From a bacterium (GTDB lineage Bacteria; Patescibacteriota; Minisyncoccia; Phycocordibacterales; Phycocordibacteraceae), in contig JAJZTG010000005.1 in the NCBI GenBank assembly GCA_021849125.1, forward strand, positions 1 through 55,573: DNA of 55,573 nucleotides. The letters run 5' to 3'. Below, in pieces: positions 7,570 to 39,363 of the stretch (its first letter is position 1; every line of letters starts with the position of its first letter). A program made the position numbers and the translations under genes. The notes beneath the pieces are model-generated. The model had not been told where the DNA came from and did no database searches. It saw only the letters and a list, made by a program, of their open reading frames with translations.

Positions 7570-8853
7570 ATGTCTAAACGCGTTGAACCAGAAATCGAGA
7601 CATTTGCCCGCATCCGCGTGGTCGGTGTCGGAGGGTCCGGCAAGAATGCCGTCAATCACATGATCGAGTCGAAGGTGCGTGGCGTCGAGTTCATCGCGGT
7701 GAACTCCGATGCACAGGACCTGCATCGCTCGCTCGCTAAGAAGAAGATCCATATCGGCAAGAATCTCACTCGCGGGCTTGGCACCGGCATGAACCCGGAG
7801 CTCGGCAAGCGTGCAGCGGAAGAGACGCGTCAGGAGATCCAGGAAGCGCTTCAGGGTTCGGACATGGTCTTCATCACGGGCGGTATGGGTGGCGGCACCG
7901 GCACAGGCGCCTCGTCGGTCGTCGCGAAGATCGCGAAGGAATCCGGCGCGCTCGTTATTGCGGTCGTGACCAAGCCGTTCTCTTTCGAAGGTGCCCAGCG
8001 TAAGGACATCGCGGAGCGCGGCCTTGCCGATCTCAAGAAGGAAGTAGACGCCTTCATCGTGATCCCGAACGACAAGCTTCTCTCGGTGGTCGACATGAAC
8101 ACCACCGCCAAGAGCGCCTTTGCCATGTGCGATGAGATCCTTCGCCAGGCTGTCGAAGGCGTATCCGACATCATCACCACCCCAGGCGAGATCAACACCG
8201 ACTTCAACGACATCAAAGCCATTATGGAAGGCGCGGGCCCGGCCCTTATGGGTATCGGCATTTCCGAAGGAGACGACCGCGCTTCGACGGCCGCTAAACA
8301 AGCAGTTAATTCCCCACTTCTCGATGTTTCGATCGGTGGAGCGAAAGGCATCCTCTTCGTGGTCGCTTCGAACGACGACCTCGGCATCATGGAGGTCCAG
8401 GAGGCTGCAAAGGTTATCAACGAGTCGGTCGACAAGAACGCGAAGATTATCTTCGGCATGATGAAGGACGAAAAGCTCAAGAAGGGCCAGATCCGCATCA
8501 TCGTCATCGCGACCGGCTTCCCCGAGAGCGCTGCGCATGCAACCCCGCATGTCGCTGGCTCGGAGCGTTCGCTCTTCTCGATGGCACCGGCTGAGCGTGA
8601 AGAAGAACGTGGCCGCATCTATCACGAAGTCCTCAAGCGCGATGACCATGGTGAACCTGAAGAGACAGCCTCAAAGGAGAAACCTGACCTTAAGAAAAAG
8701 GAGCAGAAGGCCCAGCCTCTCGCTTCTCTTGAAAAAGAAGAGCCGATCGTGACGGCTGTCCCCCACAAGCGCGATGAGCTCGCGACGCCTTCACCGGAAG
8801 ATGATGGCGCCTGGGGAGCGATACCGGAATTCCTCCGTCGTCACAAGAAGTAA
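7570..8853 (+). CDS. ftsZ: cell division GTPase FtsZ
   Basis: VVGVGGSGKNAVNHM and the tubulin signature GGMGGGTGTGASSVVA. Acidic/basic C-terminal linker and tail. Confidence 0.97.
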   Translation: MSKRVEPEIETFARIRVVGVGGSGKNAVNHMIESKVRGVEFIAVNSDAQDLHRSLAKKKIHIGKNLTRGLGTGMNPELGKRAAEETRQEIQEALQGSDMVFITGGMGGGTGTGASSVVAKIAKESGALVIAVVTKPFSFEGAQRKDIAERGLADLKKEVDAFIVIPNDKLLSVVDMNTTAKSAFAMCDEILRQAVEGVSDIITTPGEINTDFNDIKAIMEGAGPALMGIGISEGDDRASTAAKQAVNSPLLDVSIGGAKGILFVVASNDDLGIMEVQEAAKVINESVDKNAKIIFGMMKDEKLKKGQIRIIVIATGFPESAAHATPHVAGSERSLFSMAPAEREEERGRIYHEVLKRDDHGEPEETASKEKPDLKKKEQKAQPLASLEKEEPIVTAVPHKRDELATPSPEDDGAWGAIPEFLRRHKK

Positions 8854-9927: not shown

Positions 9928-10118
9928 TGCGGAGAGGGTGGGACCGATGATTACACCTTTTCTCCCTCGCCTCTCGTACTCGCCTTCGCTCGCACGAGGG
10001 CTGGGCACCGCCTCGCTGTCCTCGCCTGCTGGCTCGGACATGCTCCGGCGTTCGAATCCCCCACGCAAGACGCGCAGGCGTCTTGCTCCTCTCCGTAGCT
10101 TTCACTGCGTTCAATCAG

Positions 10119-10205: not shown

Positions 10206-10774
10206 GTATGGATACCCCGTCATCCTATCATAAACAGGAAAAGATGCAGCCCGCGCCCCTTAAGGGGCGCGGGCTGCATCTTACGTAAAAGGAGCTTATG
10301 CAGCTGCCTCCTCCGTGGTCTCTGCCGGCATAGCCTCGGCCGTAGCCTCGGTGGTCTCCTCGACCGGCGTGTTCGTCATCTCGTCCATATTTTGAATATG
10401 TGTCCGGTTCTGCATTAAAAACGCAAAACCAGTCCAACACTTAAGATAAGACTGGCAAAATTCGACCTACATTTATATCTTACCACGACCCCTCCCATTT
10501 TTCAATCCTCAGCAAGACCCTGGGTATAGCGCAAAAACGCCACAAAGCCTGGCCATTTTATGAATATGCGGTAGTATCAACAGGACGGCCCTACCGTCTA
10601 ACGGCTAGGACAGCGCCCTTTCACGAGCGTAGAGAGGGGCTGAAATGCGAGGTGACGCAAGCATTTCAGGGCCGGAGGCCGACGGGCCGAGGCGGGGTCG
10701 CGCAAATTTTCAGCAGAAAATTATGCGTGACCGATCGAATCGAACCCGCTGGCGTGATTCACAACAAATAAATT

Positions 10775-10846
10775 GGCCCTATCGTCTAACGGCTAGGACA
10801 GCGCCCTTTCACGGCGTAAATCGGGGTTCGATTCCCCGTAGGGTCA
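10775..10846 (+). tRNA. tRNA-Glu (anticodon UUC)
   Basis: GGCCCTA/TC/GTCTAACGGCTAGGAC/A/GCGCC-CTTTCAC-GGCGT/AAAT/CGGGG-TTCGATT-CCCCG/TAGGGTC/A. Confidence 0.9.
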
Positions 10847-10883
10847 CATTAATCAATGCTAAGTTTCGTCGACGGACGCTCTG

Positions 10884-10904: not shown

Positions 10905-10977
10905 GCGCGGTTAGCTCAGTTGGTAGAGCATCTCATTGACGTTGAGAGGGTCAGGGGTTCGAGTCCCTTACCGCGCA
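10905..10977 (+). tRNA. tRNA-Val (anticodon GAC)
   Basis: GCGCGGT/TA/GCTCAGTTGGTAGAGC/A/TCTCA-TTGACGT-TGAGA/GGGTC/AGGGG-TTCGAGT-CCCTT/ACCGCGC/A, followed by a hairpin and T-run. Confidence 0.92.
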
Positions 10978-11187
10978 CAAGATAAAAGGCTCTGGATGCG
11001 AAGCATCTGGGGCCTTTTATTGTGACGCGGCAAGGGACTCGAAAGGTGTAGCAAGCTGGGCCAGCAGGCGAAGCAGCGAGCCCTGGGTTGCGGAAATTCC
11101 CGAGCGACGGCGAGGGAATTATCTGTGACCGTGCCCTTACCACGCCATATGTCGAACGAGACTGCTAAATCGTGCTATAACAAAGCC

Positions 11188-19652: not shown

Positions 19653-20459
19653 TCAGCGAGAGATAAACCCACCGGCATATCCGCGTTGAGGAACGCCAAA
19701 GATCCGGACGAGCCCTTGCTCCGGACCCCACGATTCCATGAACGCGATGATCGTGCGCTTTTCCGCATATCCGGTGAGGGTATATTTCTCCGCAGATCGC
19801 ACATGATCACCGTGTCGCAGAAGTACGGCGAAGCCGCCCATCGCCGCAGCGAACTGCGCTGCAAGGTACTCGAACGAGTACCCTTTTCCGAGATGCTGGT
19901 GACGGAAATCTTTCACCCGCTGATTGCCTATCATGACTTCAGGCGCAGCGGTGAATGCGCATCGGAAATCGTTCACAGATGCCCAGATGTCACTTCCGAG
20001 TCTGCCCGTCTCTTTCGACATCTCGCTAACCCGCATATGTATGATTTCCTCAGGTTCGACACCTTCGCACATGCCGCAAGCGGCAGCTGCGAAACAATGA
20101 TCGAACGCCGCAACGACGCGAGCGTCAGGACCGGGTGCCAGTCCGAGCAGAGCATGAAGCTGCCCGATACTTGAAGCCTCCCAGAACCGATCGGGACCGA
20201 GCGCAAAACCGGGATCGCCTTCTCGATGATGGTCAATGGTTGTCGTCGAGGACGGCATGCCATGGAACGCACACTCGATCACGACAAGCTCGCATTCGTT
20301 GGGTACGGTAACAGGATCGATCCGATAAGAGTTTCCCGGGGTGGCCCGGACCCCTCCCACGGTCGCATAGGCAAACGGAATGCCGTTTTGAGCGAGTAAT
20401 CGCTCTACTGCTTGCATCTCAGGGTCATCTGCCCCTAGCAAGAATAGCTGTATCGCCAT
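19653..20459 (-). CDS. hypothetical protein with DHH-like motifs
   Basis: 268 aa with LLGADDPEM near the N-terminus, TTIDHHREGDPG, and C-terminal GVPQRGYAGGF. The resemblance to DHH phosphoesterase motifs is weak and judged by eye. Confidence 0.5.
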   Translation of the reverse strand: MAIQLFLLGADDPEMQAVERLLAQNGIPFAYATVGGVRATPGNSYRIDPVTVPNECELVVIECAFHGMPSSTTTIDHHREGDPGFALGPDRFWEASSIGQLHALLGLAPGPDARVVAAFDHCFAAAACGMCEGVEPEEIIHMRVSEMSKETGRLGSDIWASVNDFRCAFTAAPEVMIGNQRVKDFRHQHLGKGYSFEYLAAQFAAAMGGFAVLLRHGDHVRSAEKYTLTGYAEKRTIIAFMESWGPEQGLVRIFGVPQRGYAGGFISR

Positions 20460-20543
20460 TTCAATCTCCTCACGTGATGTATGTTGTCGAGAACTGTATT
20501 ACCTGTTTTTAAAGTAACACACGAACGCAATTGCGTCAAAATG

Positions 20544-20616
20544 TGCTTGGAGTCGGGCTTGAACCGACGACCCCTTCCTCTTCAGGGAAGTGCTCTACCA
20601 ACTGAGCTATCCAAGC
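20544..20616 (-). tRNA. tRNA-Phe (anticodon GAA)
   Basis: GCTTGGA/TA/GCTCAGTTGGTAGAGC/A/CTTCC-CTGAAGA-GGAAG/GGGTC/GTCGG-TTCAAGC-CCGAC/TCCAAGC/A. Confidence 0.92.
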
Positions 20617-20621
20617 GTCTT

Positions 20622-20912
20622 TTACGGGGCTTTGCCCGCTTTATAGGAGTTTATCAGGTTTTGTATTTCAGCGGAAGTCGGGATCCCAAAGAGGCCGGTC
20701 GTGGTCGCTCCGGGAGTCGCGGAGAACTTATCGACAATCGGCTGGAAGTATTGCTGGTAGAGGTAGAGCGGGAGCGCGAGGACGATAACCCAGATGACTA
20801 TCTTGACGATAAAGCCGAGCCATTGATGACGCCGGATAGCGTGGAGCATCTGATGGTTATCCTTGGCAAGAGCTTTTATCTCGTCGAGCTCGCGTTTCAA
20901 TTCCGGATCCAT
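20622..20912 (-). CDS. small membrane protein (96 aa) of unknown function
   Basis: N-terminal amphipathic helix, then one TM segment (WLGFIVKIVIWVIVLALPLYLY). TATACT lies 7 nt before the ATG. Sandwiched between tRNA-Arg and tRNA-Phe. Confidence 0.5.
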   Translation of the reverse strand: MDPELKRELDEIKALAKDNHQMLHAIRRHQWLGFIVKIVIWVIVLALPLYLYQQYFQPIVDKFSATPGATTTGLFGIPTSAEIQNLINSYKAGKAP

Positions 20913-20938
20913 GCGAATAAGTATAACAGATAGTTCTG

Positions 20939-21010
20939 TGCCCCCGGCAGGAATCGGACCTACATCAGCTCGTTAGGAGTGAGCCGTTCTATCCATTGAA
21001 CTACGGGGGC
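20939..21010 (-). tRNA. tRNA-Arg (anticodon CCU)
   Basis: GCCCCCG/TA/GTTCAATGGATAGAAC/G/GCTCA-CTCCTAA-CGAGC/TGAT/GTAGG-TCCGATT-CCTGC/CGGGGGC/A, with one A-C mismatch at 31-39. Confidence 0.85.
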
Positions 21011-21190
21011 GAAGCGAGGCAAAAAGCAACACTATGCGATTGTTTTTTCGCCGAGTGAGCCTCCGTATCTGCGTTTTGCAGATACGGAGGCGAAGTGAAG
21101 AGAAGAGTAACACGAAGTGATTACTTTTCCTCCGAACGAGCTCCCGTATCGAGACCTTGAAGATACGGGGGCGTGGAAGCAGGGTAACAC

Positions 21191-21224
21191 AAAACGCGCC
21201 CTGCGGAGAGCAGGGCGCGTTTTG
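21191..21224. terminator. bidirectional terminator downstream of the glutaredoxin-like gene
   Basis: AAAACGCGCCCTGC-GGAGA-GCAGGGCGCGTTTT. Confidence 0.7.
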
Positions 21225-21235
21225 TGAAAGAAGAC

Positions 21236-21475
21236 TTACGCGATGCCGAGTGCCGAAACGAGACGCTCTTGATCGAAACCGATGATCATCTCGTCGCCGA
21301 CGAAGATAACCGGAACGCCCATCTGACCGGACTTGCTTATCATCTCCTGGCGCTTCTCGAGGTCCTGAGCTACATCGTAGTCAGTGAAAGCGATGCCCTT
21401 TTCCTTGAGGAAATCCTTGGTCATCTGGCAGAAGTGGCACGTAGGCGTGCTGTAAATCGTAACGTTTTTATCCAT
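21236..21475 (-). CDS. glutaredoxin-like (NrdH/YruB-type) thioredoxin-fold protein
   Basis: 79 aa with YSTPTCHFCQ (CxxC) and GVPVIFVGDEMIIGFD. Confidence 0.85.
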   Translation of the reverse strand: MDKNVTIYSTPTCHFCQMTKDFLKEKGIAFTDYDVAQDLEKRQEMISKSGQMGVPVIFVGDEMIIGFDQERLVSALGIA

Positions 21476-21529
21476 GTATTGATGTGATTACCCTGCAAGT
21501 ATATCACTCCTAGTTATCCACAGCTAGCA

Positions 21530-21901
21530 CTGGTGCGGGTACCGGGGTCTCAACCGAGGGATTGGGAATCCGTAGGATTTCAGAACGGTATTCGCACTTT
21601 GTGCGGGATACGAGAATCGAACTCGTGCCTAGTGCGCGGGAATGAAAGTCTGTAGGGCTTTCATCGGTTTTCCGTAGGAAAACCGGTTCTGCCACTTAAC
21701 CTAAGCTGTGCGGGTACCGGGAATCGAACCCGGGTCTCAACCGAGGGATTGGGAATCCGTAGGATTCCCAACGGTATTCGCACTTTGTGCGGGATACGAG
21801 AATCGAACTCGTGCCTAGTGCTTGGGAAGCACTCATTCTGCCACTAAACTAATCCCGCACAAAAAGCGAATGCCGGTTCTGCCGACTCAAACCATACCCG
21901 C
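21530..21901 (-). repeat. duplicated tRNA-like module: two copies of about 180 nt, including split and degenerate tRNA-like pieces around tRNA-Gly
   Basis: 21534-21706 and 21709-21901 align over most of their length. Only 21788-21858 folds as a canonical tRNA (see finding). Confidence 0.6.
21788..21858 (-). tRNA. tRNA-Gly (anticodon CCC)
   Basis: GCGGGAT/TA/GTTTAGTGGCAGAAT/G/AGTGC-TTCCCAA-GCACT/AGGC/ACGAG-TTCGATT-CTCGT/ATCCCGC/A. Confidence 0.88.
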
Positions 21902-21902
21902 A

Positions 21903-22241
21903 TTAAAACCATGAGAACAGTTTTTGCCACCAGGACAAGGGCGTGGTCGTCGTCGCCGGTGTTGGTGGCACTACTACGATAACCTCTTCCCCAGGACGCG
22001 CAACCCCGAAGGCGGTCCGGATCGCTGCTTCCTGTCCGCGTGGCGTCGCGAGTGCCGCAAGATTGCCTTCGACCTGCGTCTTACGCTCCTCCATCGTCTG
22101 ATACTGCCGTTTTGCATCGTTTGCCTGCGAAACGGCGATATGCGCCTTCTCCGCAAGACCCCAGATGAGCGAGACCAGCCAGAAAATGATGAGGAGCAAG
22201 AAGCCGATGAGCATCCCTCGTTGCCACTCTTTCGCGCGCAT
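21903..22241 (-). CDS. FtsB/DivIC-like septum formation initiator (bitopic coiled-coil protein)
   Basis: One N-terminal TM segment followed by a coiled-coil (AKRQYQTMEERKTQVEGNLAAL) and the ...AIRTAFGVARPGEEVIVV tail typical of the family. Confidence 0.6.
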   Translation of the reverse strand: MRAKEWQRGMLIGFLLLIIFWLVSLIWGLAEKAHIAVSQANDAKRQYQTMEERKTQVEGNLAALATPRGQEAAIRTAFGVARPGEEVIVVVPPTPATTTTPLSWWQKLFSWF

Positions 22242-22254
22242 ACGGACCAGTATA

Positions 22255-24051
22255 CTACCCTTCCGTCTGGACCATCTTCATGAAGACCTCTTCAGGGATA
22301 TGGACCTTCCCGGTCCCCCGCTCGAGCATCTTCTTCTTGCCGCGCTTCTGCTTGTCGAGGAGTTTGTTCTTGCGCGAGACGTCGCCGCCGTAGAGATACC
22401 CGGTCACGTCCTTACGCATCGCCGAAAGCGACTTCGAGGCGACGATACGCCCCAAGGCGCGTGCTTGGATCTTGGTGACGAAGAGCTGCTTGGGCAAGGT
22501 CCCGTGGAGCTTCTCGACCATTTTCTCGGCTTCCTCTTGCATACGCCTGCGTGCCACCACGCGTGCGAATGCCGGTACCGGCTCCTCAGCGACAAGGATG
22601 TCGAGACGGACGACGTCAGCTGGACGCTCGGGCATAAGCTCATACGAAAGCGAGGCGTAGCCGGATGAGATGTTCTTGAGCGTGTCGAAGAAGCCGCGCA
22701 TAAGTTCCCGAAGCGGCATTTCCACGACCATCTCGATACGGCCATCCTGGAAGGTTTCCGTCGAGACCGTTTCCGCCTCATGGTCATACAGGAGCTGTAC
22801 GAGACTCGAAAGAACGTCTGGCGGAACGATGATGATGACCTTGGCCCATGGTTCTTCAATCATTTCGATCTGGCCATGCTCGGGGAATTTGGCGGGCGTA
22901 TACACGACCTCGCGCACGCCGTTTGTGGTGGTCACCGAGTACGAGATGGTCGGGATTGTGACGATGAGTTGCAGCCCGAACTCACGACGCAAACGCTCCG
23001 TGACGATCTCGAGATGCAAGAGACCGAGGAAGCCGCAACGGAAGCCGCGCCCGAGGACGCCTGAAGACTCTTCTTCAAAGGAAAGCGAGGAATCGGAGAG
23101 ACGCAGACGTTCGAGCGACTGGCGCAGGAGCGGAAGGTCATCCTGGCTCTCCGGATAGACCGATGCCCACACGACCGGACGTGGACGCTCATAGCCCGCA
23201 AGCGGCGGAAGTGCCCCTCTCACCGCACCGACCGTATCGCCCACCGCCACCACGCCCGGCTCCTTGATACCGGTGACGATATAGCCGATCTCACCGGCCG
23301 AAAGCGAGTCCGCAGGGGTCTCTTCGGGCGTAAAGATACCGGTTTCAAGCGCGACGAATTCCTTCCCTGCCGCATGAAAGACGAGCGGCTGCCCCTTCTT
23401 GAAGACACCGTCGAACACGCGCAGGTAGACCGCAACGCCGCGATGTTTCGAATACGAGAAGTCGAAGACGAGACCGCGTGGCTCGTTCCCTTCAAAACCC
23501 GCAAGCGAGTGCGGAGGAGGAATCCGCTTGATGATCGCATCAAGCAGTTCGATGACGCCCGCTCCTGTCTTGCCCGACACGGCGATGACCTCATCTTTGG
23601 AAACCTTGAGGAGGTCGGCAAGCTCGCTCGCTACCTCGTCGGGGCGAGCAGCAGGCGCGTCGATCTTCGAGACGACCGGAATCACGACACATCCTTGCTC
23701 TTGTGCTGCGGCAAGCGTCGTCAAAGTCTGCGCTTGCACCCCTTGCGTCGAATCGACCAAAAGGAGCACTCCTTCCACGGCTTTCAAGGCGCGTGAGACT
23801 TCGTACGAAAAGTCGATGTGACCCGGCGTGTCGATGAGATTGAGCGTATGGTTCTGATACTGCATGCGCACCGGCTGCATCTTGATGGTGATGCCGCGCT
23901 CGCGTTCCAGGTCCATGCGATCGAGCACCTGGTTACGCATCTTGCGTTCAGGGATTGCCCCAGTGCGTTCAAGCATGCGGTCAGCCAAGGTCGACTTACC
24001 GTGGTCGACGTGCGCGATGATGGAAAAGTTTCGGATAGAAGATTGGGTCAC
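22255..24051 (-). CDS. lepA: translation elongation factor 4 (LepA)
   Basis: [32 protein letters not shown], and the LepA-specific C-terminal domain. GTG start overlaps the murJ stop. Confidence 0.97.
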   Translation of the reverse strand: MTQSSIRNFSIIAHVDHGKSTLADRMLERTGAIPERKMRNQVLDRMDLERERGITIKMQPVRMQYQNHTLNLIDTPGHIDFSYEVSRALKAVEGVLLLVDSTQGVQAQTLTTLAAAQEQGCVVIPVVSKIDAPAARPDEVASELADLLKVSKDEVIAVSGKTGAGVIELLDAIIKRIPPPHSLAGFEGNEPRGLVFDFSYSKHRGVAVYLRVFDGVFKKGQPLVFHAAGKEFVALETGIFTPEETPADSLSAGEIGYIVTGIKEPGVVAVGDTVGAVRGALPPLAGYERPRPVVWASVYPESQDDLPLLRQSLERLRLSDSSLSFEEESSGVLGRGFRCGFLGLLHLEIVTERLRREFGLQLIVTIPTISYSVTTTNGVREVVYTPAKFPEHGQIEMIEEPWAKVIIIVPPDVLSSLVQLLYDHEAETVSTETFQDGRIEMVVEMPLRELMRGFFDTLKNISSGYASLSYELMPERPADVVRLDILVAEEPVPAFARVVARRRMQEEAEKMVEKLHGTLPKQLFVTKIQARALGRIVASKSLSAMRKDVTGYLYGGDVSRKNKLLDKQKRGKKKMLERGTGKVHIPEEVFMKMVQTEG

Positions 24052-38903: not shown

Positions 38904-38990
38904 TTTTGTCCGCCCCTGGACGAGGGACTTGGAACCGCCTAGGTATACGTAGGCGTACGGCCATCGGCCTCGTTCGAAATAAAACTGGAC

Positions 38991-39066
38991 TGGTGGGCAT
39001 GCCTGGACTCGAACCAGGAACCGCCGAGGTATAAGCTCGGTGCTCTAACCATTGAGCTACATGCCC
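38991..39066 (-). tRNA. tRNA-Ile (anticodon UAU), CCA encoded
   Basis: GGGCATG/TA/GCTCAATGGTTAGAGC/A/CCGAG-CTTATAC-CTCGG/CGGTT/CCTGG-TTCGAGT-CCAGG/CATGCCC/A-CCA. Confidence 0.85.
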
Positions 39067-39363
39067 TAAGTGAGACCAGAAACATGATGTATTTAAGCAT
39101 GTTTCTGCGCCGAACGCAGGGTAGGTATGCTTACATACATGCCCAGTATATTTCTCTCTCGCCCTCGCCCGTAAGCTCTGCGCTCTAACCATTGAGCTAG
39201 GGGCGGATATGTCCATACTATACCAACCGCCAGGTTGTGGACAGGCGGCCTATTGCCAAAACATAAAGGTAGTGGTACTGTTCCAGACAGTTTTTGCAGC
39301 CCTAAAAGCGCAAAAACTGTGGGACTGTACATTCAACTCAACAAATATAGGAAGGAGTTCACT

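Follow-up and report, generated by a model that had tools for sequence, protein, structure and literature searches.

Integrative elements of the Islander type target tRNA genes, restore the gene that they enter and leave behind a displaced fragment of it (PMC4383910). Such tRNA-gene-targeting elements are the closest known kind to what we describe here, a tRNA-Gly(CCC) locus on the minus strand (21901-21534) of the 55,573-nucleotide stretch of bacterial contig JAJZTG010000005.1 that we analysed as a whole and call the window. At this locus, a resident tRNA-Gly(CCC) gene (the outer gene) has been disabled by a palindromic insert of ~130 nt that bears a complete replacement tRNA-Gly(CCC) (the inner gene). 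We think it probable that the insert is a gene-replacement cassette acting at the level of DNA, or the relic of one, and not an RNA-processing device.

The tRNA-Gly(CCC) locus and Islander-type elements have in common a tRNA gene as the target, incoming DNA that supplies what a functional tRNA requires, a leftover piece of the old gene by which the event can be recognised and, in sister genomes (denoted below by L and a number), recombinase islands at tRNA-Gly genes. They differ in that here both a 5' (positions 1-24) and a 3' (38-72) fragment of the old gene persist, and in that a whole foreign allele, whose acceptor strands match each other, serves as the working gene instead of a hybrid of host and element. 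The break, at which 6 nt are replaced, falls between D stem and anticodon loop and is not an anticodon-loop or T-loop crossover (breaks inside the anticodon loop are seen in L021 and in a tRNA-Ile of the window). Furthermore, the ~130-nt insert has no integrase and a recombinase island adjoins it solely in L007 and L014, the recombinases in sister genomes are large serine and not tyrosine enzymes, and the architecture is that of a palindromic stem. What is new relative to the known tRNA-targeting elements is the site between D stem and anticodon loop, the substitution of a whole gene, the retention of both fragments and a palindromic insert without an integrase. Searches of the literature on nested tRNA genes and on tRNA interruptions in bacteria of the candidate phyla radiation yielded nothing relevant and no account of such nesting.

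The split and multi-intron tRNA genes of archaea (Nanoarchaeum, Thermoproteales) also have pieces linked by a long helix and an interruption in the anticodon-arm region. Here too, complementary sequences behind the 5' half and ahead of the 3' half form a helix (14 Watson-Crick pairs and one G-T in 17), but the halves do not contain every part of a tRNA and, when joined, give no complete one; a complete tRNA gene lies between them, and the host is a bacterium. No bulge-helix-bulge motif was identified at the locus, where no formal search for one was made. Miniature inverted-repeat transposable elements (MITEs) and palindromic elements of the IS200/IS605 type are likewise short and protein-less, with inverted repeats or hairpins and presumed mobilisation in trans. 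Terminal inverted repeats as in MITEs are found here (24 nt at 88%), kept in L002 and, with a different sequence, in L026. Unlike MITEs, the insert lacks a target-site duplication, is single-copy, carries a functional-looking tRNA gene and sits in one specific target gene. Group I introns in the anticodon loops of bacterial tRNA genes (bioRxiv 10.1101/2020.01.27.920355) share the interruption of the anticodon arm, but here Rfam finds no group I core, the insert is far too small and ligation restores no tRNA.

The nested tRNA-Gly(CCC) genes

The locus consists of two modules. Module 1, which holds the nested genes, is laid out as follows.

21876-21901, minus strand: 5' fragment of the outer (old) tRNA-Gly(CCC), GCGGGTA-TG-GTTTGAGTCGGCAGAAC, with the 5' acceptor strand and D arm
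21859-21875, minus strand: leader CGGCATTCGCTTTTTGT, the 5' arm of hairpin A, which pairs with the trailer and lengthens the inner acceptor stem
21788-21858, minus strand: inner, intact tRNA-Gly(CCC), a type-B allele (ARAGORN; Rfam RF00005, 67.9 bits; cloverleaf)
21772-21787, minus strand: trailer CAAAGTGCGAATACCG, the 3' arm of hairpin A (repeat search and fold)
21749-21771, minus strand: hairpin B, TTGGGAATCC-TAC-GGATTCCCAA, a 10-bp stem with a TAC loop, in the inserted module and homologous to a hairpin of L002
21743-21748, minus strand: TCCCTC, a degenerate remnant of the outer anticodon loop, which aligns with TTCCCAA of the L002 outer gene
21709-21742, minus strand: 3' fragment of the outer tRNA-Gly(CCC), GGTTGAGACCCGGGTTCGATTCCCGGTACCCGCA, with the 3' anticodon-stem strand, variable loop, T arm, acceptor 3' strand and discriminator A

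An earlier note on this DNA had described a complete tRNA-Gly(CCC) sitting between the halves of a second tRNA-like gene, and reading the sequence bears out all of its main elements at the minus-strand coordinates that it gave. Its count of 17 paired positions among the 19 flanking the inner gene is also right. The pairing of leader and trailer given above, which includes discriminator A73, is continuous with the inner acceptor stem, and with that 7-bp stem it makes up the inverted repeat of 24 nt at 88% found by repeat search; the chance of at least 14 matches in 17 is ~1e-6 (binomial estimate). RNAfold of 21901-21709 (193 nt) predicts the nested tRNA-on-stem fold at -89.4 kcal/mol (z = -7.2), with none of 200 shuffled sequences as good. 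One element of the note has to be reassigned: the hairpin containing TTCCCAA that it placed in the outer 3' piece (hairpin B) is present, but by homology to L002, from whose hairpin it differs by three compensatory pairs, it is part of the inserted module, and the remnant of the outer loop is TCCCTC.

The acceptor strand of GGTTGAGACCCGGGTTCGATTCCCGGTACCCGCA is complementary to GCGGGTA of the outer 5' fragment. The latter starts 1 nt past the stop codon of a 112-aa open reading frame (ORF), matches type-A alleles with 100% identity at positions 1-13, aligns also with L002 and has an altered D loop (GAGTC). An odd GAGTCGGC in this D loop (21888-21881) resembles a remnant of the D-loop insertion seen in L128, where two GC-rich perfect hairpins (CCCCGAC...GTCGGGG and AGCCGAC...GTCGGCT, at 8235-8324) interrupt the outer D loop.

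Loss of the outer gene

The outer 3' piece of the window is identical at 35 of 35 positions to positions 38-72 of an intact A2 allele in L020, and in L002 the outer pieces agree fully (100%) with an intact A3 allele of L010 over its positions 1-24 and 31-72. Because the outer pieces match intact alleles of sister genomes in this way, the outer sequence was formerly a normal tRNA-Gly(CCC) gene, of which the inner type-B gene is a different allele. The first suggestion of the earlier note, that one tRNA gene had been interrupted by another, is upheld by this agreement.

The outer gene is dead, with canonical positions 26-31 replaced and no splice product that is a tRNA. The 5' anticodon-stem strand is missing from it in the window, L002, L004, L005 and L026. 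ARAGORN run with its intron option (-i0,200) reports no intron-containing tRNA at the locus, nor does an interrupted outer tRNA emerge when its thresholds are lowered, and none of six hypothetical splice products (window and L002) gives a proper tRNA, with the intact A3 control detected. An Rfam scan of 20300-22100 (E <= 10) finds no intron or ribozyme family, and at permissive thresholds it returns chance-level microRNA and small RNA matches together with a weak tmRNA-like match on the outer T arm. These results tell against the alternative, also raised in the note, of an unusual intron or processing substrate, and a reading of the locus as an intron-containing or split tRNA is not supported.

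The state of the outer gene in relatives is similar. Its acceptor strands pair at 5 of 7 positions in L026, its 5' acceptor strand is gone in L004, L005 and L070, and its halves are truncated in the same three and in L128. In L128, L007 and L014 the leader and inner tRNA are kept with no complementary trailer adjoining, and thus the leader-trailer helix is not needed by the inner gene. Nor is an extra outer Gly tRNA needed, since relatives encode all three Gly isoacceptors, with tRNA-Gly(GCC) and tRNA-Gly(UCC) at another locus. The inner tRNA-Gly(CCC) is the sole functional-looking gene at the locus.

Recurrence and conservation in relatives

We compared the locus with 80 lepA loci from other species. 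Nearly all have a single tRNA-Gly(CCC) at this place, followed by nrdH, tRNA-Arg(CCT) and tRNA-Phe, and most of 53 related loci have one tRNA-Gly(CCC) after lepA and the 112-aa ORF; by this comparison, a single gene appears to be the ancestral state of the locus. The tRNA-Gly(CCC) alleles themselves vary greatly among close relatives, with acceptors GCGGGTA, GCGGGAT, GCGGAAT, GCGAGTG and GCGGATA, and their anticodon and T stems form a mosaic.

The nested form is found in the sister Paceibacterota genomes L002, L007, L014 (identical to L182), L026 and L128, with differing outer alleles, and L021 has a variant of it with the insert inside the anticodon loop. A scan of metagenome contigs with the pattern AGAACCGGNNTTCGYTTTT gave at least ~120 matches, mostly chance, and the relevant ones among the matches listed are L128 and L182. 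The outer gene is broken at sequential positions 24/25 and 30/31 in the window, L002, L004, L005, L007 and L026, the broken alleles being A2, A3, C and B-like, and the stretch replaced comprises canonical position 26 and the 5' anticodon-stem strand (canonical 26-31). The same leader and inner gene stand within outer genes of types A2, A3 and C. The general layout runs from the 5' acceptor strand and a D arm ending in GGYAGAAC through C, hairpin A, G and hairpin B to TTCCCAA, the 3' anticodon-stem strand, the T arm and the 3' acceptor strand. Hairpin A occurs in a long form with the inner tRNA at its tip (module 1 of the window, L002 and L026) and in a short form with a CC-TAC-GG tip (module 2 of the window, L004, L005 and L070).

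Module parts are well conserved between these genomes. The leader is identical at 17 of 17 positions in L007 and L128 and at 15 of 17 in L002, the trailer matches that of L002 at 14 of 16 positions with one compensatory change (C-G to T-A), and the short form together with its neighbouring hairpin (the X module, 54 nt) is 51/54 identical between the window and L004. Overall, these non-coding parts are 88-100% identical between genomes, whereas third-codon positions of lepA are saturated (identity 0.44-0.47 for the window versus L002, L004, L007 and L014). The carriers fall in two separate clades of the LepA tree, interleaved with genomes that hold simple intact loci. Taken with the variety of outer alleles, this conservation and patchy distribution argue against vertically inherited neutral debris and favour a module that has either spread recently or been under constraint. 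The nested architecture is predicted in L002, L026 and L021 as well, with 18 pairs changed on both sides. The short hairpin A shows some decay, in the form of mismatches, in L004 and L005. The exact hairpin tip TCCTACGGA occurs three times in the window, each time within the tRNA-Gly locus.

The second module

Module 2 (21708-21534) follows module 1 directly on the minus strand, and is made up of these parts.

21686-21708, minus strand: start of the module, CA and the D-arm-like piece GCTTAGGTTAAGTGGCAGAAC, without a 5' acceptor strand (sequence and relatives)
21665-21685, minus strand: C, the short hairpin A GGTTTTCC-TAC-GGAAAACC, and G (hairpin search and comparison)
21642-21664, minus strand: hairpin B', ATGAAAGCCC-TAC-AGACTTTCAT (hairpin search and the X-module match to L004)
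21602-21641, minus strand: displaced 3' part of a type-B tRNA-Gly(CCC) (sequence comparison)
21534-21601, minus strand: second copy of the trailer, hairpin B (with a degenerate 5' arm), TCCCTC and the outer 3' fragment (direct repeats and alignment)

The earlier note had seen in this module a degenerate duplicate of the whole of module 1. Its 3' 105 nt are indeed a tandem duplicate, the two modules sharing direct repeats (64 nt, 94% identical; 39 nt, 97% identical) that recur every 186-187 nt. In the displaced tRNA part, the anticodon loop is mutated to TTCCCGC, and everything from the 3' strand of the anticodon stem onward is 100% identical to the inner gene; the T loop of the second outer 3' fragment has a deletion of 12 nt by alignment, not the 11 given before. 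The 5' part is another matter. Both of the extra hairpins that the note reported there exist, but with the D-arm piece they form the conserved two-hairpin X module (D-arm piece, hairpin A, hairpin B) that is also present in L004, L005 and L070, and this part is therefore not a random degenerate copy of module 1. In the X form, a complete tRNA-Gly(CCC) lies directly upstream and is joined via CA to the D-arm piece, the old 5' acceptor strand being absent; the junction of tRNA end, CA and D arm is shared by module 2, L004 and L005.

ARAGORN calls a second tRNA-Gly at 21708-21781, with the anticodon at position 29, two acceptor mismatches and a degenerate D arm. We regard this call as spurious because the structure is poor, it is gone at the stricter threshold (-ps90) and it is not among the Rfam tRNA-model matches at E <= 10. 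A tRNA-Val(tac) called over module 2 at -ps80 is of poor structure and equally spurious. Annotation is affected in that tRNA finders call this spurious second tRNA-Gly.

A probable gene-replacement cassette

What, then, might the insert be, and how might it have arrived? The sequence shows that a small palindromic insert has replaced canonical positions 26-31 of a resident type-A gene, a stretch that begins where the D stem ends and reaches the first base of the anticodon loop. In the explanation that we favour this insert is a cassette; it consists of hairpin A, with a complete tRNA-Gly(CCC) of another allele at its tip, a single G and hairpin B. RNase P, whose RNA is encoded at 28230-28556 of the window, and RNase Z may cut the inner tRNA from the leader-trailer helix, and as the inner gene has no encoded CCA, this would be added post-transcriptionally. 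Module 2 is the relic of an earlier round: ~187 bp were tandemly duplicated and the duplicated inner gene was then, perhaps in this order, disabled by the tRNA-less X form and by loss of the 5' acceptor strand. The cassette may spread horizontally among related Paceibacterota, entering whatever tRNA-Gly(CCC) allele is resident, either by a site-specific recombinase acting in trans or by recombination that ends in the blocks conserved across alleles, the D arm and the anticodon loop. End points within conserved blocks would also explain why the break points seem precise. The host would tolerate the cassette because it supplies its own copy of the tRNA that it destroys.

A bolder form of this proposal, possible but rather doubtful, is a protein-less and self-propagating tRNA-Gly(CCC) cassette that invades its cognate gene at a fixed site between D stem and anticodon loop and kills it, behaves as an addiction-like selfish element that replaces gene for gene, is mobilised in trans and turns over repeatedly in Paceibacterota. 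Such an element would have two hairpins with conserved TCC-TAC-GGA tips, the first of them bearing the tRNA, and would leave the cell dependent on the copy that the invader brought; mobilisation might come, for example, from large serine recombinases, of which these genomes have many. A mechanism not yet described is suggested by how well the module is conserved and by the fact that one site has been used repeatedly.

Several considerations weigh against a gene-replacement cassette. There are only about ten informative loci. Both hairpins keep their pairing, as RNAalifold also has it, through double changes (10 of 24 pairs, a number that none of 500 shuffles and no slid control reaches, although with three sequences), and most hairpins share an oriented TCC-TAC-GGA tip; this could equally mean selection on an RNA or on a DNA structure. 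DNA-level homogenisation of palindromes, which needs no selection, is another possible cause. The junctions have neither a target-site duplication nor the signature of conservative crossover, and six target bases are replaced, a combination that matches no standard integrase or transposase mechanism cleanly. In addition, the blocks whose edges the break points mark are shared by all alleles, so that recombination may in truth have ended anywhere inside them. In searches of the 55-kb window by tblastn we found no homolog of large serine recombinases, Xer-type tyrosine recombinases or Y1 transposases, nor of mutator-type transposases, reverse transcriptases or Cas1. The patterns of the nested form, the X form and the trailer gave chance matches or none in viral contigs, with no free or extrachromosomal copy of the cassette.

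Of other candidate systems, integron attC sites were rejected on reading the sequence, since the junctions GCAGAAC/CGG and ...CCCAA/TCCC (the slash marks the break) are without the RYYYAAC / GTTRRRY core. Xer/dif, hix-like and IS200/IS605 models for the hairpins were set aside likewise, none of them agreeing with the junctions. The 3' end of the inner tRNA has one match in viral contigs, an unrelated phage tRNA array.

Alternative explanations

The locus might instead be the scar of a large integrative island that carried tRNA-Gly(CCC) at one end, entered the resident gene through its integrase and lost its interior, so that the leader-trailer inverted repeat would be its two remaining ends. 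The P and P' half-sites of serine integrases do resemble the ends of an inverted repeat. The serine recombinase islands of L007 and L014 are the model for such an event, in that the outer 5' half, leader and inner tRNA run directly into an island with a 454-aa large serine recombinase (PF00239, PF07508, PF13408), and in L081-L083 and L206 a 92%-identical recombinase, again with the same conserved spacer, adjoins tRNA-Gly(GCC), L207 being the corresponding empty site. In L081 and L206, however, the island joins the 3' end of the tRNA with no leader or outer 5' half, which suggests entry downstream of a tRNA already in place and not delivery of the nested structure by the island. The right end of the island lies beyond the contig ends in L007 and L014, whose contigs stop within it, and comparison of occupied L206 with empty L207 gives no clean attachment site. 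As the loss of six target bases is also unlike conservative recombination, and the X module is found without any island, we consider an island scar unlikely. These islands carry other cargo: Cas1/Cas2 in L007 (8374-11183), and a diversity-generating retroelement (bAvd and reverse transcriptase) in the large serine recombinase island of L081 (6288-9162).

Quite unlikely, in our view, is a local rearrangement without mobile DNA, in which tandem duplication and template switching during replication (the extension of quasi-palindromes) acted on a highly structured and highly transcribed tRNA gene, to be followed by vertical inheritance and decay. Template switching makes complementary arms without any selection, modules 1 and 2 are a 186-187-bp tandem repeat, and elsewhere in the window the 3' end of tRNA-Val has been copied in inverted orientation across a terminator, with arms of ~45 bp, and palindromised tRNA fragments flank tRNA-Ser and tRNA-Arg. 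Nevertheless, the inner and outer genes are different alleles, which means that the inner is no copy of the outer, and the same module sits in different outer alleles. Parts of the module are far better conserved than saturated synonymous sites, the distribution on the LepA tree is patchy and the two hairpins share a conserved, oriented TCC-TAC-GGA tip.

We also see little chance that the locus encodes a functional RNA, whether a precursor tRNA that has a tRNA as its "intron" between split-like outer halves, or hairpins A and B serving as a processing or regulatory RNA. The very stable predicted fold, the common architecture with its two-sided pair changes, the conserved tips in constant orientation and a degree of conservation past the neutral expectation would all suit such a role. 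Yet the outer gene has lost its 5' anticodon-stem strand and yields no splice product that is a tRNA, its halves are mismatched in L026 and truncated in L004, L005, L070 and L128, the inner gene manages without a trailer in L007, L014 and L128, the short hairpin A gathers mismatches in L004 and L005, the second copy has lost its T loop and no Rfam family matches. Moreover, RNase P and RNase Z generally work poorly on substrates whose leader and trailer are paired.

An assembly artefact of collapsed or chimeric repeats is highly improbable, for although the window is a contig of a metagenome-assembled genome and has near-identical repeats of 64 and 39 nt lying 187 nt apart, the same architecture occurs in independent assemblies from other samples and species (L002, L007, L014 (= L182), L026 and L128), and X modules occur in L004, L005 and L070.

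Gene context and other tRNA loci

On the minus strand, the tRNA-Gly locus is preceded by murJ, lepA (24051-22255) and the 112-aa membrane ORF (22241-21903), and is followed by a glutaredoxin/NrdH-like gene (21475-21236), tRNA-Arg(CCT), a 96-aa ORF and tRNA-Phe. An exact look-up of the 112-aa ORF of the window returned no matching record, and a promoter scan of 20400-22400 gave no match. At 21513-21522 (minus strand) there is a conserved TGTGGATAAC motif, which on the other strand reads as the DnaA-box-like TTATCCACA, and then a -10 box resembling GGTATACT; motif and -10-like box stand upstream of the glutaredoxin/NrdH-like gene in nearly all relatives.

Partial copies at other tRNA loci of the window, which the earlier note had also reported, were found. 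A tRNA-Ile(TAT) (38991-39066, minus strand) is nested between pieces of an older tRNA-Ile (38929-39206). The 5' piece of the latter (~39206-39172; acceptor CCGCCCC, D arm, ...GAGCTTA) comes directly after a TATAGT promoter-like box and its degenerate 3' piece, TATACCTAGGCGGTTCC...GGGGCGGA, is at ~38945-38905; the split is in the anticodon, with a 2-nt TA overlap. The real tRNA-Glu gene (10775-10847, plus strand) is preceded, at a distance of ~135 nt, by a 52-nt 5' pseudo-copy that extends through the anticodon loop (10588-10640, plus strand); this copy comes after a TAGTAT box, and the spacer between copy and gene contains a hairpin and an inverted T-arm-like piece. The 3' end of tRNA-Val, TTCGAGTCCCTTACCGCGCAC, recurs inverted beyond a terminator hairpin (10957-11046, plus strand), the palindrome having arms of ~45 bp and the terminator loop as its centre.

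About 170 nt downstream of each of the two tRNA-Ser genes, 15 nt of the gene's 3' end are repeated exactly and in direct orientation (9929-9943 and 33433-33447, minus strand). Between these repeats are a hairpin and an inverted T-arm/acceptor copy interrupted by a GC-rich hairpin. The units resemble miniature tRNA-3'-end insertion elements or attachment-site scars, and similar ones are present in L036, L037 and L054. Upstream of tRNA-Arg(CCT), at 21011-21180 (minus strand), tRNA-Arg fragments (GCCCCCGTA, an inverted anticodon arm and GGCTCACTC) are interspersed with perfect hairpins that have CCGTATC/GATACGG arms (21059-21091; CCCGTATC...GATACGGG).

Similar 3'-end repeats are found at tRNA-Gly, tRNA-Arg and tRNA-Phe genes of relatives. 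L240 (596-900) and L242 (597-880) are the closest relatives as judged by NrdH identity; in both, a CRISPR-like mini-array comes after tRNA-Gly(CCC), with 4-5 copies of a ~22-nt repeat, starting with the tRNA 3' end GGTCGCACCACAAGAGTACTTC and separated by unique spacers of ~35 nt, and then an inserted ORF of 165-174 aa. The partial tRNA copies and the recombinase islands together show that tRNA genes, and tRNA-Gly genes especially, are insertion hot spots in this lineage.

Implications

If the insert is a gene-replacement cassette, tRNA genes in candidate-phyla bacteria with small genomes would be replaced repeatedly by incoming copies that enter the resident gene and put it out of action, and such turnover would account for the presence of very different tRNA-Gly(CCC) alleles at one conserved locus among close relatives. 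Beside the two known modes in which mobile DNA exploits tRNA genes, the restoration of a hybrid gene and the introns, there would be a third, the substitution of the whole gene on a palindromic stem. The cassette is also relevant to the long-standing idea that mobile elements, by attacking tRNA genes, gave rise to split and interrupted ones.

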